This document shows, one piece after another, positions 7,994-54,904 of a stretch of DNA of 64,000 bases (positions are counted from its first letter, which is position 1; every line of letters begins with the position of its first letter). The notes below the pieces were generated by a model. The model had not been told where the DNA came from, ran no database searches, and worked only from the letters and a program-made list of their open reading frames with translations. Both the position numbers and the translations under genes were made by a program. The DNA is from Candidatus Omnitrophota bacterium (GTDB lineage: Bacteria; Omnitrophota; Gorgyraeia; Zapsychrales; Fredricksoniimonadaceae), in the NCBI GenBank assembly GCA_028865345.1, contig JAGWKL010000005.1:21577-85576 (forward strand), in the 5' to 3' direction.

Positions 7994-8611
7994 TTGCAAC
8001 CGTTTAAGACCCATACAGGTGTCGCGGCCCCCTTGGACCGCGTCAACGTCGACACCGACGCCATCATCCCTAAGCAATTTTTGAGGAAGATCGAAAAGGC
8101 CGGTTTCGGCAGGCATCTTTTCCATGAATGGCGCTATAGCGACTATGAAGGCACCAAGGAGAACCCGGATTTCGTTTTAAATCAAGGGCCCTTTCGCAAA
8201 GCCACGGTGCTTTTGGCCAGGGACAATTTCGGCTGCGGTTCCAGCCGCGAGCATGCGCCCTGGGCGTTGGCCGATTTCGGGTTTAAAGTGATCATCGCTC
8301 CGTCTTTCGCGGATATTTTTTATAACAATTGCGTCAAGAACGGCATTTTGCTGGCGCGCTTGAAATCCCAGGAAGTTGATGAGATATTTGCCTTTGCCGC
8401 GAAAAACGAGGGGGGCGCGGTCAGCGCGGATCTGCCGTCCCAGACCGTCACGGCAGGAGGCAGGGTTTACAAATTTCCCATGGATGCCTTTAATAAGGAA
8501 TGCCTGCTCAAAGGCCTGGACGCTATCGGCTGGACAATGCAATTCAAGGACAATATCTCGGACTACGAAAATAAAATGAAATCCGAGCGTCCGTGGATCT
8601 CGAGGGTTTAA
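7994..8611 (+). CDS. leuD: 3-isopropylmalate dehydratase small subunit.
   Basis: N-terminus [26 protein letters not shown] is the LeuD signature. The start is TTG. Confidence 0.9.
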
Positions 8612-8613
8612 AA

Positions 8614-10290
8614 ATGTCTGATATCAGAAAGTTCTCCCGTTTGGTTGTCGACGGCAATGACCGCGCACCCAACCGGTCCATGCTGCGCGCCACCGGGTTC
8701 AAGGATGAGGATTTTGGCAAAGCCCAAATCGGCGTGGTTTCCACCTGGAGCATGCTCACCCCCTGCAACATGCACATTGATAAATTGGCCGCCAAGGCGG
8801 TGGAGGGGGTTGACGCCGCCGGCGGCAAGGGCATCATTTTCGGCACCATCACCGTGGCCGACGGCATTTCCATGGGCACCGAGGGCATGAAGTATTCCCT
8901 GGTTTCCCGCGAGGTGATCGCGGATTCCGTGGAAACGGTCGCCGGATGCGAAGGCTTCGACGGGCTGGTGGCCGTGGGCGGCTGCGACAAGAACATGCCC
9001 GGTTGTGTGATCGCCATGGCCCGCCTGAACCGTCCGTCGGTGTTTGTTTATGGCGGCACCATTTTGCCCGGCTGCCTGCATGGACAGAACCTGGACATCG
9101 TTTCCGTATTTGAAGCGGTTGGCAAACATGCCGCCCGGAAAATTTCCGACCAGGAATTAAAAGATATCGAAAGCTGCGCCATACCGGGTCCCGGTTCATG
9201 CGGGGGGATGTACACGGCCAATACCATGGCCAGCGCCATCGAGGCTCTGGGCATGAGTCTTCCCAACAGCTCCATGCAAATTGCCGTGTCCCGGGAGAAA
9301 CAATTGGATTGTTTTAATGCCGGCGCCGCCGTCCTGGATTTATTGAAACGGAATCTCAGGCCCCGCGACATCATGACCAAAAAAGCTTTTGAAAATGCCA
9401 TTTGCGTGGTCACCGCCTTGGGCGGATCGACGAATGCCGTTTTGCATCTCATGGCCATTGCCCATGCGGCAGGCGTCAAATTAAACCTCGATGATTTCAC
9501 CCGCGTGAGCAAAAAAGTTCCGGTGTTGGCCGACCTTAAGCCCAGCGGCCGTTTTGTAACGGCGGAATTGGCGGCCATCGGCGGGCTTTTGCCGTTGATG
9601 AAAATGCTTTTGGACAAAGGCCTGTTGCACGGCGAGTGCATGACCGTGACAGGAAAAACCATGCGTGCCAATTTAGCTGATGTCAAACCATACCCCGCGG
9701 GCCAAGAGATCATCAGGCCGTTGGATAACCCCATTAAGAAGGAAGGCCATCTGGTCATTTTATATGGTAATCTTGCTCCTGAGGGTTCGGTAGCCAAGAT
9801 CACCGGCAAGGAAGGGTTGTCTTTCAGCGGGCGGGCCAAGGTTTTTGATTCGGAAGAAAAGGCGCTCAAAGCCATATTAGGCGGCAAAATTGTCAAGGGG
9901 GATGTGGTAGTGGTCCGCTATGAAGGCCCCCGCGGCGGTCCCGGCATGCGCGAGATGCTTTCTCCCACATCGGCCATTGCGGGCCGGGGACTCGGCAAGG
10001 ATGTCGCCTTGATCACCGACGGGCGGTTTTCCGGAGGTTCACACGGTTTTGTGGTAGGGCACATCACGCCCGAGGCTTTTAACGGCGGGCTTTTGGGTAT
10101 CGTCAAAAACGGCGATACCATCACCATTGACGCCGTCAAAAGGCAGATCGATCTTCTCCTCCCTGCGGCGGAAATCAAGAAGCGCCAAAAAGCCTGGGAA
10201 GCGCCAAAACCAAAATATACCCGCGGTGTCTTGGCCAAGTACGCTAAATTGGTCACCAGCGCCTCCAGTGGTGCAGTGACGGACAAATAA
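8614..10290 (+). CDS. ilvD: Dihydroxy-acid dehydratase.
   Basis: Matches the IlvD/Edd family throughout (CDKNMPG, SGGSHG). The ATG at 8614 comes straight after the leuD stop. Confidence 0.93.
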
Positions 10291-10293
10291 CTT

Positions 10294-10407
10294 ATGGCAG
10301 GCAATTCTTTCGGACAGTTTTTTAAGATCACCACCTTCGGCGAAAGCCACGGGCCCGCGATTGGGGGCGTCAAAAGGCCCAATTGCTTCGACGTCGAAAG
10401 AGGTTAA
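10294..10407 (+). other. Upstream ORF (37 aa) that duplicates the first 24 codons of aroC and ends in a conserved linker.
   Basis: Translation is [37 protein letters not shown]. The ATG lies 3 nt after the ilvD stop. The TAA overlaps the aroC RBS 2 nt before the aroC ATG. Confidence 0.5.
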
Positions 10408-10409
10408 TT

Positions 10410-11477
10410 ATGGCTGGTAATTCTTTTGGTCAGCTTTTTAAAATTACTACTTTTGGTGAAAGTCACGGACCTGCGATTGGGGTCGTCATTGACGGGGTGC
10501 CGCCCAAACTGCCATTGACCGAAGCAGACATTCAAAAAGATTTGGATCGCCGCCGTCCCGGCCAAAGCAAAATCACCACCCAGCGCCGGGAACCTGATAA
10601 GGCCGAGATCCTTTCCGGTGTCTTTGAAGGCAAAACAACAGGCGCGCCGCTGGCCATCCTCATCCGCAATACGGACGCCCGTTCCAAAGATTATGAGAAT
10701 ATCAAAGACGTGTTCCGTCCGGGCCATGCGGATTTCAGCTATATGGCTAAATACGGGATCCGAGACCACCGTGGCGGCGGGAGATCGTCAGGCCGGGAAA
10801 CCGCCTGTCGGGTCGCCGCCGGTGCGGTGGCCAAAAAGATTTTGGCCGGGCATAAGGTCGGGATCATTGTTTATACATTGTCCGTCGCGGGCGCCTATGC
10901 CCAGGAGATTGATTACAGTGTCATCGAAAAAAACGCGGTGCGTACCGCCGATATGAAAGCCGCCGGGCTCATGATCGCCAAGATTGAAGAGGCGCGCAAG
11001 AACGGCGATTCGCTGGGCAGCACCCTGCAGTGCGTTGTGAAAAATTGCCCTGCGGGCCTGGGCGATCCCTGCTTTGATAAACTCAATGCGCGCCTGGCCC
11101 AGGCATTGATGTCCATAGCGACCGTCAAGGGTATTGAATTCGGCGATGGGTTCGCCGCCAGCCAGCTGACGGGTTCCATCAACAACGACCGGTTTGTCCT
11201 TAAGGGTAAGAAAGTGGGGACCGCCACCAACCATTCCGGCGGCATCATGGGCGGCATATCCACCGGCGAAGACATCACCATCCGTATGGCATTGAAGCCG
11301 CCGTCATCCATTTCCAGGCTGCAGAAGACAATCAACGAGAAACAACAGGAAGTCGAAGTCCGGGTCAAAGGCCGCCATGATCCGTGCCTCGCCCCGAGAG
11401 TTGTCCCTGTGGCTGAAGCCATGATCGCCCTGACGCTGGTGGATTGTTTGATGATCCAGAAAGCCACAAATTTATAA
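10410..11477 (+). CDS. aroC: Chorismate synthase.
   Basis: N-terminus [29 protein letters not shown] and full-length AroC similarity. The SD GAAAGAGG is present. The ORF track's start at 10383 is an upstream TTG artefact. Confidence 0.93.
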   Translation: MAGNSFGQLFKITTFGESHGPAIGVVIDGVPPKLPLTEADIQKDLDRRRPGQSKITTQRREPDKAEILSGVFEGKTTGAPLAILIRNTDARSKDYENIKDVFRPGHADFSYMAKYGIRDHRGGGRSSGRETACRVAAGAVAKKILAGHKVGIIVYTLSVAGAYAQEIDYSVIEKNAVRTADMKAAGLMIAKIEEARKNGDSLGSTLQCVVKNCPAGLGDPCFDKLNARLAQALMSIATVKGIEFGDGFAASQLTGSINNDRFVLKGKKVGTATNHSGGIMGGISTGEDITIRMALKPPSSISRLQKTINEKQQEVEVRVKGRHDPCLAPRVVPVAEAMIALTLVDCLMIQKATNL

Positions 11478-11487
11478 ATCCATTGTC

Positions 11488-11553
11488 ATGCAGGATCAAA
11501 AAGTCATTTTAAATATTCCCTGTTCCTTCGACGGCGCCGGGGTACATGGATAA
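11488..11553 (+). other. Upstream ORF copy 1 (21 aa) of the SDR start-duplication module.
   Basis: Translation is MQDQKVILNIPCSFDGAGVHG*. Its TAA overlaps the next ATG (ATGGATAA). Confidence 0.4.
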
Positions 11554-11611
11554 TCGAAAAGTTATTCTCAATATTCCCTGTTCCTTCGAGGTCGGAAGGT
11601 TAAATGGATAA
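11546..11611 (+). other. Upstream ORF copy 2 (21 aa) of the SDR start-duplication module.
   Basis: Translation is MDNRKVILNIPCSFEVGRLNG*. It duplicates ATGGATAATCG(A/G)AAAGTT of the SDR gene. Its TAA overlaps SDR codons 2-3. Confidence 0.45.
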
Positions 11612-12452
11612 TCGGAAAGTTGTCCTGATTACGGGGTGTTCAAGCGGGTTTGGGCTGTCTACGGCTGTACGATTGGCTGCGAGCGGCCATTTTGTTTGGG
11701 CGACGATGAGGGACACGTCCAAAAGGTTCCGCCTGGAAAATGGGCTGGCCAAGCACAGGGCCCAGGCTTTTATCCGCGCGCTGGATGTCACGCAACCTCT
11801 TACCATCCAAAATGTCGTTGATGAAATCGACCAAACCCATGGGCGTATTGATGTGCTGGTCAATAACGCGGGCTATTTGGTCGCGGGGTTCTTTGAGGAT
11901 TTGAAGCCCGAGGAGATCCGCGCGCAGATGGAAACCAATTTTTTCGGGGCACAGAATGTCTGCCGCGGGGTTCTGCCTTTGATGCGCCGGCAAAAGAAGG
12001 GCAGGATCATCAATATTTCCAGTATTGCCGGGCAAATAGGCACTCCGACGCTGGGAGCGTACAATGCCAGCAAGTGGGCGCTGGAGGGATTCAGCGAAAG
12101 CCTTTATTTTGAACTTAAGCCCTTCGGGATTTCCGTTTCCCTGCTGGAACCCGGCCTTTATACAACCGAACTTTTCAGCAAGAATATCCGTTACGCACAG
12201 GATTTTGACAATCCCCAAAGCCCGTATTTCAGCCTGAACCGGAAAATTAAGGCGTTTTCCCATAAGTTCCATAAACTTGGGAAGGACCCCAACCGGATAG
12301 CCGGGCTGATTGAACGGATCATCAATGAGAGGTCCCCGCGTTTGCGCTATGTTTCCGATTTTCCATCGTGGGTAAGGATCAATGCCCAAAAGATCCTGCC
12401 GCCGGCCTGGGTGGCCTATATTCTCAGGAGGGTTTTTCATGCAGACAAATAA
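11604..12452 (+). CDS. Short-chain dehydrogenase/reductase (SDR family oxidoreductase).
   Basis: TGCSSGFG Rossmann motif, NNAG, and the catalytic S...YxxxK (YNASK). Confidence 0.85.
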   Translation: MDNRKVVLITGCSSGFGLSTAVRLAASGHFVWATMRDTSKRFRLENGLAKHRAQAFIRALDVTQPLTIQNVVDEIDQTHGRIDVLVNNAGYLVAGFFEDLKPEEIRAQMETNFFGAQNVCRGVLPLMRRQKKGRIINISSIAGQIGTPTLGAYNASKWALEGFSESLYFELKPFGISVSLLEPGLYTTELFSKNIRYAQDFDNPQSPYFSLNRKIKAFSHKFHKLGKDPNRIAGLIERIINERSPRLRYVSDFPSWVRINAQKILPPAWVAYILRRVFHADK

Positions 12453-12738
12453 AACACCTTATCAACGGCAAATCTTCGTATGCACCAATAATGTCAATGG
12501 CGAAAAAGCCTCCTGTGGCGATCATCAGGGAGAGGAAGTTTTCCGTCAACTGCGCGAAATTGCCAAACAGCGTAAACTGCATCCCAATATCCGTGTGGCC
12601 CAGGCCAGATGTTTAGGGCAGTGCAACAGGGGCGTTAACATTATGGTCTATCCTGAAAACGTCTGGCACAGCGATGTACGCCTCGGGGATGTGCCCCAAC
12701 TGGCGGAAAAATATATAACCGCGGCCCAAGGCTTGTGA
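12439..12738 (+). CDS. Thioredoxin-like [2Fe-2S] ferredoxin-domain protein.
   Basis: Cys pattern C-x..C...CLGQC. The ATG overlaps the SDR end by 14 nt. The ORF track's 12382 start is too long. Confidence 0.55.
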   Translation: MQTNKTPYQRQIFVCTNNVNGEKASCGDHQGEEVFRQLREIAKQRKLHPNIRVAQARCLGQCNRGVNIMVYPENVWHSDVRLGDVPQLAEKYITAAQGL

Positions 12739-13772
12739 CATTCATGATGAGGATATTCTTTTTTACCGGATTCATGTTTTTAAGCGCTTTGTCTGCTTAT
12801 GCCCAGACGGCCGGAGAGTATAACAATCAGGGCTTGGCGGCCCTTCGCTGTGGCCATGCCTCTGCTGCCATTGTCGCGTTCACCAAGGCGATCGCTATCG
12901 ACCATCATAACGCACAAAGCTATACGGACCGCGCCCTTGCTTTTGCTGAATCGGGCCGTTGGACCGATGCTGTTTCAGATGCCGACCACGCCATCAAGCT
13001 GGCCCCCCGGCTGGCCGTTGCTTACAATAACCGGGCCACCATCGAGGCGGCCGAGGGCAAGGCGCCTGATGCCCTTGCCGATCTGGCCATGGCCATTGAA
13101 TTGGCCCCCCGGGACACAGGATGTTATAACAATCGGGGGATTATTTATTATAAGCTGGGCAACTTTCCTGCCGCCATTTCCGATTATACCAAGGCCATCG
13201 GGATAGACCCCGGATATGTGCCTGCTTATGCCAACCGCGGCAAAGCTTACGCCAAGGAAGGTGATCTTACCGCCGCCTTGACGGATTACAATAAAGCCAT
13301 TGAAATAAAACCCGGCGATGCGTTCCTTTACAGGAACCGGGGCCTCATTTATATCAAAAGCGGCGATCTTACCGCCGCCAGGACTGATTTCAGCAAGGCC
13401 ATCGGCATGGACCCCAAAAATACGGCTGCCTATTTTATCCGGGGGACCATTTATTACAAGCAGGGGGATTTCACCGCTGCGGTCGCTGATTTCAGCCAAG
13501 CCATCAGCCTTGATCCCGTTGACGCCAAAAGCTATATGAACCGCGGCCTGACCTTCCTGCGGATCAATATGCCCCGGCAGGCCATTGCCGATCTGGTCAA
13601 GGTGACACAATTGGACCAAAGGTTCACAAGGGCCTATTATAACCTGGCTGTGGCCTATTATAAGCTCAAGCAATACGATAAAGCCTGGGAGTATGTGCAC
13701 AAGGCCCAGAGGCTGGGTGTCACCGTCAAACCGGCATTTATGGAGGCGCTCAAAAGCGCTGCCCGCAAATGA
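12735..13772 (+). CDS. Secreted TPR-repeat protein.
   Basis: Signal peptide followed by about 8 tandem 34-aa TPR units (AYNNRG..Y..A..D). Confidence 0.8.
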   Translation: MTFMMRIFFFTGFMFLSALSAYAQTAGEYNNQGLAALRCGHASAAIVAFTKAIAIDHHNAQSYTDRALAFAESGRWTDAVSDADHAIKLAPRLAVAYNNRATIEAAEGKAPDALADLAMAIELAPRDTGCYNNRGIIYYKLGNFPAAISDYTKAIGIDPGYVPAYANRGKAYAKEGDLTAALTDYNKAIEIKPGDAFLYRNRGLIYIKSGDLTAARTDFSKAIGMDPKNTAAYFIRGTIYYKQGDFTAAVADFSQAISLDPVDAKSYMNRGLTFLRINMPRQAIADLVKVTQLDQRFTRAYYNLAVAYYKLKQYDKAWEYVHKAQRLGVTVKPAFMEALKSAARK

Positions 13773-19059: not shown

Positions 19060-22000
19060 TTGACCATGCTTAGAAAAATTTTGAGCCTGACCGTTATTTT
19101 CTGTTTTTTTCTCACAACTTTAACCCCCTATCCCAAAGCCCACGCAGATATAATGGCCGCCCTGCCGGCGCCCGGGACCATGGTCAATTTAAGCCCGGCT
19201 TACCAGCCTGTATTGATCAAGGGTTTGACCGTTCATAAAGACAATCCGTTCCTTTTTGATTTCATGGTGGATACCGGCAACAGCGGCATGACCGGCGCCC
19301 GGCTGAAGAAAGAAAGCGACCGCCTGGTCAAATACTTTTTCGCCTGCTTGACCATCCCCGAAAAAGATCTGTGGGTCAACCTTTCCCCATATGAAAAGAA
19401 CCGCATGATCCCCAGAGCCCTTGGTCAGACCGCGTTGGGACGCGATCTGTTGGCCGAAGATTATATCCTTAAACAGTTGACTGCTTCCCTAATATATCCC
19501 GAAAAAGACCTTGGCAGGACCTTCTGGAACAGGGTTTATGCAAAAGCCCGGCAGATGTACGGCACCACCCAGATCCCGGTGAATACCTTCAATAAGGTAT
19601 GGATCGTTGCTGATAAAGCTACTGTATATGAGCATGGCCAGACGGCGTTCGTGGTCAGGGGACACCTGAAGGTGATGCTTGAAAAAGATTATTTGGCCTT
19701 GAAGAAACATATGGCGGGTGCTGTTGAAGGCCGGGCGGGGTCTTCCCGGACCAATGACCTTGGCTCCCAGATTGTGCGCGAGATCGTCCTGCCCGAGATC
19801 GATAAAGAAGTGAACACGGGCAGGAATTTCGTTGCCCTGCGTCAGATATTTAATTCTCTTATCCTGGCCGCGTGGTACAAGAAGGAGCTCAAGCAGGCCT
19901 TGTTGAACCGGGTTTATGCCGATAAGAGCACCGTCAAAGGCATGAACCTGGCCGACCCTTCCGTCAAGGAAATGATCTATCAACGCTATCTGGAAGCGTA
20001 CAAGAAGGGTGTGTTCAATTATGTCAAGGAGTATACCCGGGCCGACGGCCAGGTGGTCCCCAGAAAATATTTTTCCGGCGGGTTTGTTTCAGATTTGAAA
20101 ATGACCGTAGACAAAGACCCTGCGGATGCGGCCCAGGCCGCCGAGCCGACGGGGAATATGGTGGACGTGTCCGTCGGGCTGAAGGTCAAAACCGGCGACC
20201 AGGCCATGACGCCCCAGACCAATGATTTCGATAATGCGTATGTCCTCTGGGACGAGCAGACCTCCCAGTTGGATGAACATACGGGCAAGGGCCTGGTCGG
20301 TGGAAAATCTTATCAGGCGGCCAGGTATTGGAAAGACGAACCGGCCAATAATCTGCGCAGTTTTTCCGCCACCGCCAAGGCTTCCATCGATTTTTTGAAT
20401 TCCAACCAGGATCTGCTTCCCGAGATATACCGTATCACCCGCGACCTTGATGCTTCCGATGAAACGGCCAGGGAAGAGGCCGGCGCCAGGATCCGAGCCT
20501 TGATCACGGGTACGCCCGTTCCTGCTGCCATTGAACAGGCCGTCCGCCAGGGCTACCGCAGATTGGTCAGCATCACGGACCAGCCGTTGGTGGCGGTGCG
20601 CAGCTCCGGGAAGGCGGAGGATATTTCCCTGAATGTCCCGGAACTGGCCGGGATCAATATGGGCGCCAATGCCGGGCAGCATGACACCTTCCTTGGGGAA
20701 ATGGGCGCAGATGCGGTCATTAAACGCTGGAGGGACTGTATCGCTTCGCTGTATACGGCCCGGGTCCTTGGCTACCGCGACAGCATGATGGTCTTCAGCG
20801 CCTTCGGCAAGATTCTGCCCAACAAACAATTGACCGCGGAGATCATTGCCAAGCTAAAGACAGGCAACGATGAGGACAGGCTTGTGGCCCGCGCCATTGA
20901 GGAAAAGAACATAGGGATCATCTCTTCTTTAAGATTATTGCATGCCTTGCAGCGCAACGGTTTTCAGGAAGCGGCGAAGCTGGTCAGTGAAGCGCGCGAG
21001 GATTTCATCAAGATCGCAAACATAGCCATGGGGGTCACGATCATGCCCATGGCCGGCGTTGACATTTCCTTCGTGGCCTTCGGGCATGACATGACCTCCT
21101 ACTGGACGGCGAAGGATTTCCAGGACGTTTCTCCCGAGGAATATCTTAATAAAGGCCGGGTGGTGACTGTCACCACCAATTACGGCCTGGGGGAATCTAT
21201 CGTGCAGGGGGCTGCCATGCCCGATACGTTTCTGGTGCACATTTTTAAAGATTCAAGCGGGGAACATGTCAATATCCTTTCCCGGACCCTGGGCACGAAA
21301 AGCGTGCAGACCGTATATGTCGCCCCTGTCATGGAGGCTCTCGGTCTCAACCATGCTTCGGTGAAACTGTTCCTGGAATTATTGGGGGCCGGGGATGTCA
21401 CGGCCTTCAGCGGCTTGGGCAACGCAAAGGATTATAACGAGATGCATCTTAAGAAGGGGGCCGATCTGGTCGTCATCAAAGACGTCCTGGAACGGTTGAT
21501 CAAAGAAAAGGTCGATGGGACATCCTCTGTGAAGATCACGGCCGATGAGCTGTCCCAATTCACGTATACCAGGGAAGAATTGGATAAACTGGCGCACCTT
21601 TTAAAGGCGTTCCAGAAGGACCCGGAGATCAAGACCATGTTCACGGACGTCCCGGAGGAGTTGCGCAACCAGTTTTCGGCCAGCGATGAGCAGGTCCGCA
21701 AGATCGCCCTGGAGTTCATGAAAAAGGCCAAAGATTTTCACGATCTCGTGGATATGGAAGGCGCCGTGGGCAAGAATTTCAGCCGGCTCAACGTCGCGGT
21801 GACGACCCAGCGCCGCCCCTCCAATGTGGACAAAGGCGACGTCAAGGAACCACGGATGATCAATATCCATTACACCTATGTGAAGGCCGGCGACGTCGAT
21901 AAGATCCGTGCCGGGAAGGAACGCATCACCAAGGCCGACGGACAGTTGACGAACATTGTGGTCGGTGAACAACTGGTCCAGGGCATCCCCACCCGCAACA

Positions 22001-25000
22001 GTTTTTCGGGGACGATTTACAAGATCGATGACTCCAAGGACCTGACGCCCCAATTTGAGGAGATCAAACGTCTGGCCGATGAAGGCCATAAGATCATTAT
22101 CCGTACCAATGAGACGACTCCGGACTATATCGATGTGTTGAAATATAAAAATGTGGTGGGGGTCATCGCCAATTCAGGCGGGGCGACCTCGCACGCGGCG
22201 GTCGTTTCCAGGGAGCTTGGTATCGCCACGGTGGTGGGCATTCAGAGCTGGCTGGACAGGCTGGCCGATACCCTGGGCCCGCAGAAGGCTATGGAGATCA
22301 AGGAATATCTCGATACGACCGGGAGCATTGTGACCGTGGACGCCAATGCCGGCGAAGAAACGGGTTTGGGTACCGTTTATGCAGGCCAGTTGCCCATCAG
22401 TACGCGCAACATCGAGATAGACATATCACGCCTTCCTTATATTTACACCAAGATCGGCTATATCATGGGCATGCCCCATCCGATGCTGGCCATGTCTAAA
22501 ATGTCTCAATATAAGGGATATTACGGGGTGGCGCTGATGCGCGGGGAGTTCGCTTACGCGGAGGAAGGCATCAATCCGCGGGCGGGGCGCGCCTATGATC
22601 TGATGCTGGTGGATGATTATTTGAAGACGTACAGGGACAACAATGCAGCCAAAGCTTATTATGAAAAATTGGGGCGGGCGGAAAGAGAAGCCCTCGACAC
22701 CTTCAGGACCCTTCTTGAACGAAGGGCGGATCTGCGCGCCCGGGGGCAGGACATTCCTTTGGATGAAACACAACGGTACATCGAGCAGTTCAAGAATAAG
22801 CGTCCGGGGGCTTTTTTAAAGAGCCTCTCCACCTACCAGCAGACGGACATTGAGCTGCTGAGGGAGCACAGCGAAGATGTGGGGAAATTGACCAAACAGA
22901 TCGTCGGGTATTTGTCGTACAATGAGTTTTTTGAAGCGGTGCACGGCGGGGCGGTGGCGACCATGGCCGCAGCCAACAGCCAGGAAAACGATACCGTCGT
23001 TTATCGCAGCATCGACTTCAAGAAAAACGAAGCGGCCGAACTGATCGGCTCCAAGATCTTTGACCCTATCCCCGAGCCCGCCACCATGATCGGTGAGCGC
23101 GGCGCCCGCTGGCTTTTAAAGCCGGAGAACAGGGTCATCCTTGTCGAAGAGATCCACATGCTCCTGCGGCAGGTCGACCGGGGTTATAAAAATATCGGTT
23201 TCATGTTCCCCTTTGTGTCTACTCCCCACGAGTTGGACCAGCTTTTGACCATATTGGATAATGAAGAAAGGAGTTTCAGTCTCCAGGAGAACAAACCTTT
23301 ATATTTAAGGGAAGTCGGACAAATGGTGGAACTGCCCAGCAACATCGTGGAGGCAGAACAGTTCATCCAGGTTCTCAAGAGGCACGAAGCCAGGACCAAA
23401 GCGTGGTTCAAGGAGAAGTTTTCCGTGGACATCAAGCGCAGCAGCTTTCTGTCCTTCGGGACCAATGACCTGACTCAGTTGACCCTCGGTGCGGACAGGG
23501 ACAATCCCAAAATGAGGCAATTGTTCAATGAGGCCAACCCCTTTGTCATCGAATCCATCCGCCACGTGGTCAATATGGCCAATAAATACGGGATCAAATG
23601 CGGGCTTTGCGGCCAGGCGCTGGTGAACCTGGTCAATGTGGACCCTGATGCGGCGGAGGAGATCCTCATGCTCCTCGGTTCCACGGGAGGGTATGCCGGG
23701 ACGGACTATCTGGGCACCCTGGCGGCCATCACCCGTTCCGCGAGCGCGACCCTGAAACACGGGGTGGTGGCGGATGAAGTGGCTGCCTCGGCGCAACCGA
23801 TCGCCCTGCACATTGAGTCCACCTTGGAGCACGGGGCGGCCGCCCGTCCTTTGTATCAGGTGACAACCCACGAGGATCTGGACAAAACCTATTTGGGTGA
23901 TTTTATCTTCGTCCATAACGGTATTTTGTCGGGTTTTGAAAAGGACGAGAAGTTAAAGCAGCAGCTTTCCCGTTTGGGGGCCATTATCTACAGCGATGAT
24001 AAACTGGCCGACGTGATCAAGACCGTCAGCAAGACCTTACGCGTGCCGGCCGTTAAGGTGGATGCAGGCGCCGACCGCCTCGCCGCTGTATCTAACGGAG
24101 ATAAAGTCACCATTGATTTCAACCGCCATGCCATTTACAGAGGCGCCCTGGAGGTTTCCATCGATGTGCCTGAAATAGCCAGCAAGATCGACGTCAACGC
24201 CAAACACCATCCGGAATTAAAGCGCATCGACTTTAACGAGACCTTCCGCGCTTCGGACTTGTACAAAAGCCTGGGCATCTATCCGACGGCTTTCCTGGCC
24301 TTTGATGACCCGAAAAAGCAAGGTGAGCTCGACCCTGAGACCATCGCCGAGATCAGGCATTTGATGCGCGAAACGCAGAGTTCTTCGGCCGTAGGAGTCC
24401 TGCGCCATGAGATCCAAAAGAGGATCACCTCTCAAATGGTCCAGCCTGATGCCAGAATGGTTTATGAGACCATGGACCTGCAGAGTGATGATCAGATCAA
24501 GCTGCTGGGCCATAAAGCCATGGGCGCCGTGGAAGAGGTCAACCCGCCCTTAGGGTTCAACGGCCTGGAAGCTTTGATGGACGACCCTCAATTGAGGGAA
24601 CTCTTCAAGGTCGAGATGTCCACCGTCAAGGGGCTGATCGACAAGGGGTATAATATTTCTATTCAATTCAACGGCATCAAGACCCCCAAGAGCCTGCAGG
24701 AGGCCATGGCGATCCTAAAGGAGATCGGCATTGATCCCTCCAAGGTCAAGGTGGGCATGAATACAGCCTGGCCCGGCAATTATCTTTTCCTGCAGGAATA
24801 CCTGGCCCAGGGGCTTTCCTTTGTGACCGTGGATGAAAGGAAGTTGGCCCAAGCGTATCTGGCGGCCGATCTTTATAAGAACGAAAGGGTCCGCGATACT
24901 TATGCATGGAACAATATCAAGGCGGACATGAATTATCCCGAAAGGATGATCGAACAGGCCGTTGCTGATTATTCCGCCAGAAAGCACGATGTCTTCATCC

Positions 25001-25317
25001 GGACCATCCCCTTTGATTCTGCCATGACAGCGCCCCCTGAAATGCCTGTTGCCGCCGTGAGGACGCAAGCGGCCGTCCCGCCGGGCGGTATCGACTTAAA
25101 TACCGCCAACATGGCCATGACGGTGACCAAAGACGCCGACGGCGGAGTAAAGGTGCTTACGCAGTCGAAACAATTGGGCCTTTTGATCGCGCGCATCAAG
25201 ACCAGGGGGGTATTCTCGGCGGACCCTGTCATTATCCGTATCACGCCCATAAGCCGCGCGCAGATATCGCCTTTGTTGGGCTTGCGGGTGTCACCGGCCC
25301 GGTCGGCCCAGGTTTAA
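19060..25317 (+). CDS. Giant (2085 aa) signal-peptide or anchor protein with PEP-utilising-enzyme domains (PPDK/PEPS-like).
   Basis: N-terminal hydrophobic signal. Nucleotide-binding motif VAVRSSGKAEDISLNVPELAG. Phospho-His swivel GGATSHAAVVSRELGIATVVG. TIM-barrel motif FLSFGTNDLTQLTLGADRDN. About 450 aa N-terminal and about 550 aa C-terminal have no clear assignment. Confidence 0.75.
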   Translation: MTMLRKILSLTVIFCFFLTTLTPYPKAHADIMAALPAPGTMVNLSPAYQPVLIKGLTVHKDNPFLFDFMVDTGNSGMTGARLKKESDRLVKYFFACLTIPEKDLWVNLSPYEKNRMIPRALGQTALGRDLLAEDYILKQLTASLIYPEKDLGRTFWNRVYAKARQMYGTTQIPVNTFNKVWIVADKATVYEHGQTAFVVRGHLKVMLEKDYLALKKHMAGAVEGRAGSSRTNDLGSQIVREIVLPEIDKEVNTGRNFVALRQIFNSLILAAWYKKELKQALLNRVYADKSTVKGMNLADPSVKEMIYQRYLEAYKKGVFNYVKEYTRADGQVVPRKYFSGGFVSDLKMTVDKDPADAAQAAEPTGNMVDVSVGLKVKTGDQAMTPQTNDFDNAYVLWDEQTSQLDEHTGKGLVGGKSYQAARYWKDEPANNLRSFSATAKASIDFLNSNQDLLPEIYRITRDLDASDETAREEAGARIRALITGTPVPAAIEQAVRQGYRRLVSITDQPLVAVRSSGKAEDISLNVPELAGINMGANAGQHDTFLGEMGADAVIKRWRDCIASLYTARVLGYRDSMMVFSAFGKILPNKQLTAEIIAKLKTGNDEDRLVARAIEEKNIGIISSLRLLHALQRNGFQEAAKLVSEAREDFIKIANIAMGVTIMPMAGVDISFVAFGHDMTSYWTAKDFQDVSPEEYLNKGRVVTVTTNYGLGESIVQGAAMPDTFLVHIFKDSSGEHVNILSRTLGTKSVQTVYVAPVMEALGLNHASVKLFLELLGAGDVTAFSGLGNAKDYNEMHLKKGADLVVIKDVLERLIKEKVDGTSSVKITADELSQFTYTREELDKLAHLLKAFQKDPEIKTMFTDVPEELRNQFSASDEQVRKIALEFMKKAKDFHDLVDMEGAVGKNFSRLNVAVTTQRRPSNVDKGDVKEPRMINIHYTYVKAGDVDKIRAGKERITKADGQLTNIVVGEQLVQGIPTRNSFSGTIYKIDDSKDLTPQFEEIKRLADEGHKIIIRTNETTPDYIDVLKYKNVVGVIANSGGATSHAAVVSRELGIATVVGIQSWLDRLADTLGPQKAMEIKEYLDTTGSIVTVDANAGEETGLGTVYAGQLPISTRNIEIDISRLPYIYTKIGYIMGMPHPMLAMSKMSQYKGYYGVALMRGEFAYAEEGINPRAGRAYDLMLVDDYLKTYRDNNAAKAYYEKLGRAEREALDTFRTLLERRADLRARGQDIPLDETQRYIEQFKNKRPGAFLKSLSTYQQTDIELLREHSEDVGKLTKQIVGYLSYNEFFEAVHGGAVATMAAANSQENDTVVYRSIDFKKNEAAELIGSKIFDPIPEPATMIGERGARWLLKPENRVILVEEIHMLLRQVDRGYKNIGFMFPFVSTPHELDQLLTILDNEERSFSLQENKPLYLREVGQMVELPSNIVEAEQFIQVLKRHEARTKAWFKEKFSVDIKRSSFLSFGTNDLTQLTLGADRDNPKMRQLFNEANPFVIESIRHVVNMANKYGIKCGLCGQALVNLVNVDPDAAEEILMLLGSTGGYAGTDYLGTLAAITRSASATLKHGVVADEVAASAQPIALHIESTLEHGAAARPLYQVTTHEDLDKTYLGDFIFVHNGILSGFEKDEKLKQQLSRLGAIIYSDDKLADVIKTVSKTLRVPAVKVDAGADRLAAVSNGDKVTIDFNRHAIYRGALEVSIDVPEIASKIDVNAKHHPELKRIDFNETFRASDLYKSLGIYPTAFLAFDDPKKQGELDPETIAEIRHLMRETQSSSAVGVLRHEIQKRITSQMVQPDARMVYETMDLQSDDQIKLLGHKAMGAVEEVNPPLGFNGLEALMDDPQLRELFKVEMSTVKGLIDKGYNISIQFNGIKTPKSLQEAMAILKEIGIDPSKVKVGMNTAWPGNYLFLQEYLAQGLSFVTVDERKLAQAYLAADLYKNERVRDTYAWNNIKADMNYPERMIEQAVADYSARKHDVFIRTIPFDSAMTAPPEMPVAAVRTQAAVPPGGIDLNTANMAMTVTKDADGGVKVLTQSKQLGLLIARIKTRGVFSADPVIIRITPISRAQISPLLGLRVSPARSAQV

Positions 25318-36104: not shown

Positions 36105-36154
36105 ATCAATACGTTGCTTATATTCCCTGTTTCTTCGGCGCCGTTAGGTTTTAT

Positions 36155-53659: not shown

Positions 53660-53775
53660 AGATGACTCGAGGCGGGGTAACGGCAGCTAAAGGGTTTTTG
53701 GCCAACGGGGTATCGGCAGGCAATATTCCCTATTGCTTCGAATTCGTAAGGGGTTCTGCATATGAAAATTATTAA
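53656..53775 (+). other. Upstream ORF (39 aa) that duplicates the argJ N-terminus and ends in the conserved linker.
   Basis: Translation is MKMTRGGVTAAKGFLANGVSAGNIPYCFEFVRGSAYENY*. Its ATG overlaps the argC TGA (ATGA). Its stop falls inside argJ codons 4-5. Confidence 0.5.
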
Positions 53776-54904
53776 GGGCGGAGTTTGTACTCCTAAAGGT
53801 TTCTTGGCCAATGGTGTGTCATCAGGTATCAAACGGTCAGGGAAGCTGGATTTAGGCGTCATTGTTTCCGAAGTGCCCGCTGTTGTGGCCGGGGTGTTTA
53901 CCAAAAGTTCCATCAAGGCAGCGCCTCTCATCGTCAGCATGAAGCATATCAAAAAAGGCTCTGGAAGGGCGGTGGTGGCCAATTCCGGCAACGCCAATTG
54001 TTTTACCGGTCCCGCCGGGTTAAGGTATGCGCAGGGAACGGCGGAAGCGGTGGCCGGGTTTCTTGGCGTCGGACCCGCGGATGTTTTGGTGACATCCACA
54101 GGGATCATTGGTAAGACCCTGCCTTACAATAAGATCATCGACGCGCTGCCGGCTTTGCTCAAGGGTGTCGGCTCCAAAGGCGGCGGTAATTTCGCCAGGG
54201 CCATCATGACGACGGATTTGAAGGTCAAGGAATGCGCTGTTTCGCTTGTGATCGGAGGCAAAAAAGTCTCCGTCGGCGGCTGCGCCAAAGGTTCCGGGAT
54301 GATCGAACCCAATATGGCCACCATGCTCGGGTTTATCACTACGGACGCATCGATCTCTTTAAAGATGTTGAAGCTGGCTTTAAAGCGCGCCACGGAGCGT
54401 TCGTTCAACAGCATTACCGTCGATGGGTGCATGAGCACCAATGATATGGTCACCGTGCAGGCCAATGGGCTGGCCGCCAACACAAAAATCACGGCACAAG
54501 GGGCTGATTTCAAGAAGTTTTACGGGGCGCTCGAATTTGTCTGCGTCGATTTGGCCAAGCAGATCGTACTCGACGGGGAAGGCGCCACCAAATTTATAGC
54601 GGTCCATGTCAAGGGCGCGGCGGATGGTCCCCAAGCCCGTACAATAGCCAAAACCATCGCCAATTCACCCTTAGTCAAGACTGCGGCTTTCGGCAGCAAC
54701 CCTAATTGGGGGCGGGTGGCTGCGGCCGTGGGTTCCTTGGGGATCGCCCGGATCAACGAGAACAGCGTGAAGATCACTTTTTCCCCCTTTGACAAAAAGG
54801 AAATCAGCATTGGCGTCGAACTTTCGTTGGGACGTGCCGAAGCCACGGTTTACACCTGCGATCTTTCGCTCGAGTATGTGCGGATCAACGGGGAGTACAA
54901 TTGA
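53762..54904 (+). CDS. argJ: Bifunctional glutamate N-acetyltransferase / amino-acid acetyltransferase.
   Basis: ArgJ family (GFLANGVSSGIK...ATMLGFITTDA, with the self-cleavage Thr). Confidence 0.92.
   Translation: MKIIKGGVCTPKGFLANGVSSGIKRSGKLDLGVIVSEVPAVVAGVFTKSSIKAAPLIVSMKHIKKGSGRAVVANSGNANCFTGPAGLRYAQGTAEAVAGFLGVGPADVLVTSTGIIGKTLPYNKIIDALPALLKGVGSKGGGNFARAIMTTDLKVKECAVSLVIGGKKVSVGGCAKGSGMIEPNMATMLGFITTDASISLKMLKLALKRATERSFNSITVDGCMSTNDMVTVQANGLAANTKITAQGADFKKFYGALEFVCVDLAKQIVLDGEGATKFIAVHVKGAADGPQARTIAKTIANSPLVKTAAFGSNPNWGRVAAAVGSLGIARINENSVKITFSPFDKKEISIGVELSLGRAEATVYTCDLSLEYVRINGEYN

Follow-up and report, generated by a model that had tools for sequence, protein, structure and literature searches.

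A construction made of a relic gene start and a short dispersed element, called E below, may keep neighbouring genes translated together in an operon of Candidatus Omnitrophota. It is found in a 64,000-nt stretch of a metagenome-assembled genome (MAG) of this group (the window, to which all coordinates refer unless another locus is named), at the junction between aroC and the gene of an SDR-family oxidoreductase (the SDR gene) and at two further junctions. By comparison with related genomes, the aroC–SDR locus is evidently a formerly tight operon junction which has been expanded. Two upstream open reading frames (uORFs) now lie between the genes, each composed of a copy of the SDR start and a copy of E. 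The most likely explanation, with a probability of about 55%, is that this anatomy forms a termination–reinitiation relay, by which coupling would be kept across the inserted DNA.

The tandem unit of the aroC–SDR junction has a period of 58 nt and is present in 2.2 copies at 11488-11621 (Tandem Repeats Finder, 82% matches, score 170). An earlier note on this DNA described two 21-codon uORFs ahead of the SDR gene, the first of them starting 10 nt past the aroC stop codon (TAA, 11475-11477), and its coordinates and stop/start overlaps hold throughout; the tandem arrangement also stands, the period of about 57 nt does not. Each unit consists of a 24-nt copy of the SDR start (ATG and seven codons) followed by the 32-34-nt element E. 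The idea of a diverged SDR head making up the entire unit is correct for these first 24 nt, to which the clear copy is limited, and needs revising for E, which is dispersed; an origin of E from the SDR head is nevertheless possible. Both uORFs end in GGA TAA within ATGGATAA, and the uORF1/uORF2 and uORF2/SDR overlaps are 8 nt each. The ATGGATAA overlap is automatic, because a period of 58 nt equals 3n+1 and ATG GAT AAT is read from the upstream frame as xAT GGA TAA. The two 58-nt copies are 78% identical. The head of the second unit (H2) is hybrid-like, its 5' part being similar to the real SDR head and its 3' part to the head of the first unit (H1), and unequal exchange between head copies is the supposed origin of the second unit. 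In the spacer of this junction neither a promoter-like nor a terminator-like site was found, and Rfam covariance models gave 0 matches at an E-value of <=1 across 10200-11700.

The source is a MAG, and such a structure could in principle be imitated in assembly, by collapse or duplication of a repeat or by a tandem joining of strain haplotypes. This explanation is refuted almost completely. Four assemblies drawn from two or more data sources have the same 126-nt spacer, which is 100% identical in GCA_028870875.1, GCA_028871075.1 and the Logan assembly of run SRR32006849, and the unit copies are only 78% identical; duplication during assembly, against which the earlier note had advised a check, is therefore excluded. 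Homologous single-unit versions are also found in other species processed by other pipelines (JGI, ENA). The unit was also expected to change in copy number, and it does so among Omnitrophota species: there are no copies in about 60 of them, one copy in L085 and L095/L172 (L numbers designate the related loci) and two in the species of the window.

Table 1. Genes, relic uORFs and copies of element E in the window.
Feature	Position	Strand	Description
ilvD, dihydroxy-acid dehydratase	8593-10290	+	Pfam ILVD_EDD_N/C; gene upstream of the first expanded junction
aroC relic uORF, 37 aa	10294-10407	+	26 ancestral aroC codons, then E; stop TAA 2 nt before the true ATG
E before aroC, AAAAGG subtype	10372-10405	+	AAAAGGCCCAATTGCTTCGACGTCGAAAGAGGTT; nhmmer E-value 8e-5; AGAGG motif 6 nt upstream of aroC ATG
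aroC, chorismate synthase, functional copy	10410-11477	+	Pfam Chorismate_synt; codons 2-26 recoded to T-ending
uORF1	11488-11553	+	encodes MQDQKVILNIPCSFDGAGVHG, then stop; ATG 10 nt past aroC stop
uORF1 parts	H1, SDR-head relic, 11488-11511; E1, 11512-11543; then AC	+	stop TAA 11551-11553 overlaps uORF2 ATG
uORF2	11546-11611	+	encodes MDNRKVILNIPCSFEVGRLNG, then stop
uORF2 parts	H2, SDR-head copy, 11546-11569; E2, 11570-11601; then AA	+	stop TAA 11609-11611 overlaps SDR ATG
SDR-family oxidoreductase, 282 aa	11604-12452	+	Pfam adh_short 2.9e-52; protein begins MDNRKVVLITGCSSGFG
E-like copy, AAAAGG subtype	25156-25184	-	25/29 identical to aroC copy; without flanking repeat; weak profile match
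E at Fer2–MoaE junction	36120-36152	+	nhmmer E-value 1.4e-5; both genes on minus strand (Pfam Fer2, MoaE), E inverted relative to them
argJ relic uORF, 39 aa	53656-53775	+	MKMTRGGVTAAKGFLANGVSAGNIPYCFEFVRGSAYENY, then stop; 22 ancestral argJ codons, then E; stops 11 nt within argJ
E before argJ	53722-53755	+	AATATTCCCTATTGCTTCGAATTCGTAAGGGGTT; nhmmer E-value 2e-6; AAGGGG motif 8 nt before argJ ATG 53762
argJ, functional copy	53762-54904	+	Pfam ArgJ

The ancestral state of these junctions can be seen in the relatives. The ilvD-aroC-SDR order is kept in about 55 Omnitrophota species. The aroC stop and the SDR ATG are 1-11 nt apart in relatives (4-11 nt in L004, L006, L008, L009, L084, L086, L091-L094 and L154), and the SDR protein of the closest species begins with M[QDN][NDS]QKVILITGCSSGFG. 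The distance from the ilvD stop to the aroC ATG is 1-3 nt in relatives, and an ATGA overlap of argC and argJ is kept in six related loci. It follows from these tight junctions that uORF1, the aroC uORF and the argJ uORF begin at ancestral starts. The functional starts have moved downstream by 116 nt for SDR, 116 nt for aroC and 106 nt for argJ. The window is densely packed, with 28 of its 45 same-strand junctions at <=15 nt, and three gaps of 102-126 nt are explained exactly by relic plus insert. The SDR proteins of the two E-bearing clades are 61-67% identical; a search of genome and metagenome collections for closer relatives with intermediate states gave none above 67% SDR identity.

The occurrence of the same construction before aroC and argJ had been missed by the earlier note. 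The layout of relic head, E and intact gene is repeated in the window at ilvD–aroC and argC–argJ, and it is also found at the SDR junction and other junctions in the second Omnitrophota clade. The aroC relic lies at the ancestral start, 3 nt past the ilvD stop; its direct repeat of 80 nt (81% identical, spacing 116) touches both ends of E. The ATG of the argJ relic overlaps the stop of argC, a gene also confirmed by Pfam, as ATGA, and the argJ repeat of 66 nt (68% identical) touches E. No further short-range duplication of a gene start was detected by a scan of the whole window. The aroC relic uORF differs between two MAG strains by a TTT to TCT change, F to S (L002:2719 versus window 10322), while the sole difference of the functional aroC head between them is a synonymous GGA to GGG.

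According to the proposed mechanism, ribosomes ending aroC would re-initiate at uORF1, as they formerly would have done at the ancestral SDR start. Translation of uORF1 would pass through E and terminate on the uORF2 ATG, and uORF2 would likewise terminate on the ATG of SDR. Shine-Dalgarno (SD)-like purines (GGGG, GGAAGG) 3-4 nt before the ATGs of uORF2 and SDR would be supplied by E. The relay would thereby hold SDR translation coupled to aroC over a 126-nt spacer, which would otherwise break the coupling. Coupling by termination and reinitiation has been described for pairs of genes that overlap or lie close together (Huber et al. 2019, PMC6728339; 2023, PMC10666635), and it is nearly abolished when the stop-start distance is about 20 nt (PMC10666635). 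A 34-nt insert in an overlapping junction would therefore be expected to uncouple the genes unless it is bridged.

The ilvD–aroC, aroC–SDR and argC–argJ junctions of the relatives have the layout of such pairs: the reading frames are co-directional and either overlap at stop and start (ATGA-type) or lie a few nt apart. The uORF chain recreates overlaps at each step, so that successive frames are within a few nt of each other (10 nt from aroC to uORF1, 8-nt overlaps, 2 nt for the aroC uORF). Unlike them, the proposed relay would run through one or two non-functional mini-ORFs derived from the start of the downstream gene, and the overlap is 8 nt, not 4 or 1. A synthetic bicistronic design, ascribed to Mutalik et al. 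in 2013, reportedly has a short leader ORF which contains the SD of the target and a stop overlapping the target ATG, the passage of ribosomes being said to open the start region. The likeness to this design is that a short upstream ORF bears the downstream SD and ends on the downstream start codon; the difference is that the uORFs described here are natural, intercistronic, tandem and formed from the gene's own head and a repeated element. The construction is thus a combination of known principles, namely stop/start coupling, short dispersed repeats and variable-length direct repeats, and literature searches found no published description of E, of the relic head with E, or of this combination.

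The comparative data agree with a relay. In all forward cases the relic start retains its ancestral context, and the frame opened by it crosses E and ends between -18 and +14 nt of the new ATG. At the SDR junction each of the four uORFs (4/4, in three lineages) has kept its ATG and is open over 21-22 codons, and all four have a stop/start overlap, which is ATGGATAA in three of them and TCATGA in L095, where the spacer is 7 nt longer. Their KVIL codons vary only synonymously (GTC/GTT, ATT/ATA/ATC, TTA/CTA/CTC). Among the junctions in which an upstream ATG enters a forward E, the uORF reads the same frame of E in 4/5 (NIPCSFD, KRPNCFD). The stop/start relay suggested by the earlier note is mechanistically plausible and fits the position of uORF1 at the ancestral start and the overlap with a different sequence in L095, with the qualification that the overlap is no independent coincidence and that its statistic is modest.

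Several points weigh against a relay. The overlap in the SDR units follows automatically from the 58-nt period, and the usual overlaps are of 4 nt or 1 nt, an 8-nt one being less typical. The SD-like motifs before uORF2 and SDR are short-spaced (3-4 nt), unlike the well-spaced ones of E 6 nt before aroC and 8 nt before argJ. In the window genome, 43-45% of off-frame readers entering gene starts stop by +8 to +14, so that a stop at the start in every uORF departs from chance only to a modest degree (about 0.01-0.02 for 5-6 cases). Ribosomes are probably lost at every re-initiation, and with two relays the output of SDR may be reduced and not preserved. The synonymous-only variation of the relic heads could also arise from repeated derivation from functional alleles. 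Finally, E has no significant RNA fold in the eight copies examined (z-scores from -0.9 to +0.4), which leaves a hairpin-opening mechanism unsupported; a hairpin in E sequestering the SD was rejected on the same values.

The main rival of the relay is the reading of the uORFs as neutral scars. They would then be untranslated or inconsequential leftovers of junction expansion, the relics would be young or harmless, and SDR would be initiated de novo at the SD of E, the GGAAGG of E2. This is a possibility of some weight, though clearly less probable than the relay. It agrees with the automatic nature of the overlap at a 3n+1 period, with the commonness of off-frame stops near starts (45%), with the well-spaced SD carried by E before aroC and argJ in a genome which uses SD, and with relic heads that are near-unchanged from the ancestral sequence, as expected at a young age. 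It is opposed by the presence of the 24-nt head with E in both clades, with ATG, frame and overlap all intact despite the divergence of their SDR proteins and, in L095, with a different overlap sequence. Moreover, direct repeats of 24-80 nt located 34 nt apart are expected to delete readily unless retained. Regulatory leader peptides, in which attenuation or arrest would sense an amino acid or metabolite, could be suspected from the biosynthetic nature of the genes (ilvD, aroC, argJ) and from the FF in the aroC uORF. Such a role is very improbable: there are no runs of regulatory codons, neither a terminator/antiterminator nor an Rfam match was found in the spacer, the uORFs lie between cistrons and not at an operon leader, and the N-termini of the peptides are those of the host gene itself. 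A Phe attenuator in the aroC uORF was rejected specifically, because FF is lost in strain L002.

Element E was traced by an nhmmer profile and a fuzzy search. Profile matches in the window lie at 10372, 11511, 11570, 36120, 53722 and, weakly, 25184(-), and others are found in L085 (n=3), L089 and L095; additional copies are located at other junctions of L173. The copies of L089 and two of those in L085 are inverted. This gives six copies in about 84 kb of the window genome, mostly at gene boundaries. The profile had no match in about 150 other Omnitrophota loci; searches of 21 kb from the sister species (L164) and of about 20 kb flanking the window gave no copy either. The E core had 0 matches in viral_contigs, on which ground E as part of a phage or a known mobile element was rejected. 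Copies of E are 18-26/32 identical to each other, and the first 27 nt are identical in E1, E2 and the L085 copy. In L085 and L095, the ATG and seven SDR codons are followed by AATATTC[CT]CTGTTCCTTCGAC... before the SDR gene. The element has an imperfect internal palindrome, TTCGAC/GTCGWA, and weak CCCT/AGGG symmetry, without clear terminal inverted repeats; by eye, the central palindrome shows two compensated and at least five uncompensated changes. Pfam scans and gene tables revealed no transposase, reverse transcriptase or recombinase in the window, and neither a transposase nor a RAYT gene was seen in about 84 kb of its genome. The 3' end of the copy at 36120 is 2 nt from the Fer2 stop, and a candidate 15-nt flanking repeat noted there by eye is non-significant. 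The copy at 25156-25184(-) lies within the 3' portion of a coding frame of 2083 aa (19066-25317), which has a weak match to PEP-utilizers_C, and may be an in-frame insertion or a remodelled C-terminus.

In 8/13 copies of E, the best flank-to-flank match is a direct repeat of 19-99 nt abutting both ends of the element (99th-percentile score of the alignment null, 14). Besides the aroC and argJ heads given above, the SDR head is repeated in the window, L085 and L172 (20-28 nt, 75-90% identity), and the aroC tail is repeated at two inverted copies in L085 (99 nt, 75% identity, at the first; 19 nt, 79% identity, at the second). Shorter repeats were obtained from filled and empty sites. At the ACAD–patatin junction, L172 has the empty site AAATGACCGCC and L173 the filled one, AAATGACCGCG[E]...ATGACTGCC, with a 9-nt head repeat; a 6-nt repeat was found before a flavin reductase gene. 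The polarity is constant in five robust and three weak cases: in the orientation of E, the relic is on the 5' side and the intact gene on the 3' side, and the 3' end of E (..AAGGGGTT) is 0-20 nt from a start or stop codon. When E is inverted, the duplicated part is the 3' end of the upstream gene. Selection for SD placement could be the cause of orientation in forward copies; it cannot account for the inverted ones.

The duplicated segments of functional aroC (10410-10487) and argJ (53762-53827) are strongly recoded to T-ending codons, and the relics keep the ancestral composition. The fraction of T at third positions (T3) is 0.64 in codons 2-26 of aroC versus 0.19 in the rest of the gene, and 0.48 in codons 2-22 of argJ versus 0.20 in the rest; the aroC value exceeds all 52 ORF heads of the window and all 76 relatives. 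Third positions differ from L004 in 9/26 codons of the aroC relic and in 17/26 of the functional head, and the relic segment AAGATCACCACCTTCGGCGAAAGCCACGGGCC is identical to L004. Derived changes number about three in 78 nt of the relic and at least nine, synonymous, in the functional head. The diverged copies are thus the functional ones and not the relics, and this clock mismatch speaks against repeats that began identical and simply diverged neutrally. Recoding for the opening of the start site was rejected, since modelled accessibility is not higher in the recoded heads (aroC 0.34 vs 0.51, argJ 0.47 vs 0.52). No donor of the recoded aroC head was found among the sampled lineages, the best match being 66/78.

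In the 259-nt aroC–SDR gap of L085 (2242-2500), one forward and two inverted copies of E lie together with the relic of an SDR head and two relics of the aroC 3' end. The relic aroC ends resemble different lineages, one being L089-like and the other, LMIQKATNL-stop, window/L004-like. The former matches the real tail of the sister L089 at 91% identity. For the functional tail the nearest match is L173 (84%); compared with its own relic it is 74% identical, with synonymous differences only, and the 3' half of aroC is 91-99% identical to L173. L085 aroC thus shows the pattern of a recombinant mosaic, apparently formed by allele import, on a single metagenome contig.

The construction has three candidate origins: E may have been inserted with a target duplication of variable length, a diverged allele may have been imported, or E may have been born from the SDR head. 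None of the three explains everything. Under plain tandem duplication, two in situ events would have copied the 58 nt at the start of the SDR gene, the 3' 34 nt of the copies would have diverged, and E, born here, would have been copied elsewhere later. It is consistent with the in-register similarity of E to SDR codons 9-19, which is 16/32 for E2, above all null positions (null mean 8, 99th percentile 14), and 15.2/32 on average over nine relatives (p about 0.002), and with the presence of E at aroC–SDR in all sampled E-bearing genomes. This similarity to the host gene is confined to the SDR junction; the aroC copy (5/32) and the argJ copy (9/32) are at chance level in register with their hosts. 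E at aroC, argJ and Fer2–MoaE, like inverted E, is 18-26/32 identical to the copies of the SDR junction and unrelated to its host genes. Some copy-and-paste mechanism is thus required whichever way E arose. The AAAAGG subtype is without similarity to the SDR gene (8.6/32), and the first 27 nt of E remained identical in E1, E2 and L085 while the SDR proteins diverged. Duplication in situ is accordingly rather doubtful as the whole explanation.

A somewhat better but still tentative candidate is a transposition-like insertion of E with long variable target duplications spanning the gene boundary, the survivors being those in which an intact gene was regenerated. The direct repeats of 19-99 nt abutting E and the shorter ones of 6 and 9 nt, the constant polarity in both orientations and the other small palindromic inserts in the same junctions of other species would agree with it, and a precedent exists in IS1549/IS1634, with direct repeats of 8-514 bp (PMC2266710). 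It is weakened by the absence of a young copy with near-perfect repeats among those found (identities are 68-90%), by the lack of a transposase in about 84 kb, by the absence of clear terminal inverted repeats, and by the misfit of the derived changes in aroC, about three in the relic against at least nine in the functional head, with neutral divergence of identical copies. The only insertion sequence (IS) seen nearby, of the DDE type in L174, has an end that does not resemble E and was rejected as its source. Alternatively, foreign DNA reaching from E into the gene could have been imported as a diverged allele, by homologous recombination in the gene and illegitimate recombination at the 5' end of E, the resident end being left as the relic. 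This route, about as doubtful as duplication in situ, may account for the recoded functional copies and the L085 mosaic, just as the birth of E in place may account for the similarity at the SDR junction. Import is suggested by the L089-like relic tail (91%) and the L173-like functional tail (84%) of L085, by its second relic tail, which equals the C-terminus of the window/L004 group, by repeat identities of 68-90%, which resemble divergence between lineages, and by the intact state of the relics next to functional copies whose differences are mostly synonymous. Points against it are that no sampled lineage matches the recoded aroC head (66/78 at best), that the T3 of this head exceeds all relatives, that a primary mechanism placing E at the gene boundaries of the donors is still required, that a constant donor breakpoint at the 5' end of E is unexplained, and that L085 is a single contig.

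A broader and equally tentative possibility is that E is a new short mobile or recombination module. It would enter coupled junctions with its 3' end against a start or stop codon and duplicate a gene end or replace it with a foreign allele, neither gene being broken; uORF relays of 0, 1 or 2 units would then tune translation, and the family was maybe born from the SDR 5' end.

The direct repeats of IS1549/IS1634 are of 8-514 bp, formed by an unexplained mechanism (PMC2266710), and E is likewise flanked by very variable direct repeats of about 6-99 nt, as in the IS1634 type. It differs in its length of about 34 nt, in being non-coding and without clear inverted termini, in its diverged repeats and in having one repeat boundary always at a gene boundary; no IS1634-family DDE transposase was found near E. 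REP/BIME, MITE and Rickettsia palindromic elements (RPE) are short dispersed bacterial repeats, of which the RPE type is sometimes translated. E is similar to these in its length of about 30-40 nt, its partly palindromic structure (TTCGAC/GTCGAA centre), its dispersal in both orientations at gene ends in operons and its occasional translation. Unlike REP and MITE, it is low in copy number (6 in about 84 kb), has no significant fold and is flanked by long gene-end duplications; the stable hairpin of REP/REPIN is not formed by the eight folded copies, and instead of the fixed short target-site duplication of MITE there are repeats of 19-99 nt, possibly 6-9 nt. The uORFs in turn lack the codon runs, terminator, Rfam match and leader position of amino-acid attenuators, being intercistronic. 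Integrative elements with a surrogate gene end are known from e14 in icd and from tRNA-integrating islands. The resemblance to them is that the resident gene end is left as a relic and that the functional one is another allele, differing mainly at synonymous sites; the contrast is that only 34 nt separate the copies and that neither an integrase nor att arms are present.

If the relay works, a compact genome would tolerate an insertion at overlapping stop/start junctions by reusing the old start as a bridging mini-ORF, and the number of bridges would be an evolvable control on the expression ratio. An element of about 34 nt with fixed polarity, variable gene-end duplications and a functional copy more diverged than the relic does not fit standard REP, MITE or IS behaviour. 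It may reveal a variable staggered-cut transposition chemistry, unexplained since IS1549/IS1634, or a polar import of alleles between lineages. In practice, such relics can mislead the annotation of uncultured phyla, in which they give rise to spurious small ORFs and to displaced gene starts.

Downstream of the SDR gene, a DUF1636 gene (12439-12738) overlaps its end by 14 nt (12439-12452), and a TPR gene and a flavin reductase gene overlap as ATGA at 13769-13772, both overlaps being typical of tight coupling in this operon. In other SDR loci, inverted E has become a part of the gene: it is translated as an N-terminal extension, M..IRPAEQGTGNIQKVILITG, in P0147/P0181/P0206 (L173:2388-2440), and it replaces the canonical start codon in the L089 type (P0190, P0191, P0195; 276 aa). 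Unrelated small palindromic inserts are located at the same junctions in L005, L007, L013 and L015 (aroC–SDR gap), L085:5505-5600, L005:5400-5440 and L006:4680-4740. The insert types of other Omnitrophota include AATAGGG..CCCTATTT hairpins and a GTCACAAG-repeat hairpin, and the CCCTATTT motif is common to some E variants. Judging from these inserts, operon junctions of Omnitrophota seem to be general landing sites for short elements. In aroC itself, the block of codons 11-20, AAGATCACCACCTTCGGCGAAAGCCACGG, is near-invariant in nucleotides across distant Omnitrophota, synonymous sites included, and has eight synonymous changes in the functional aroC of the window.

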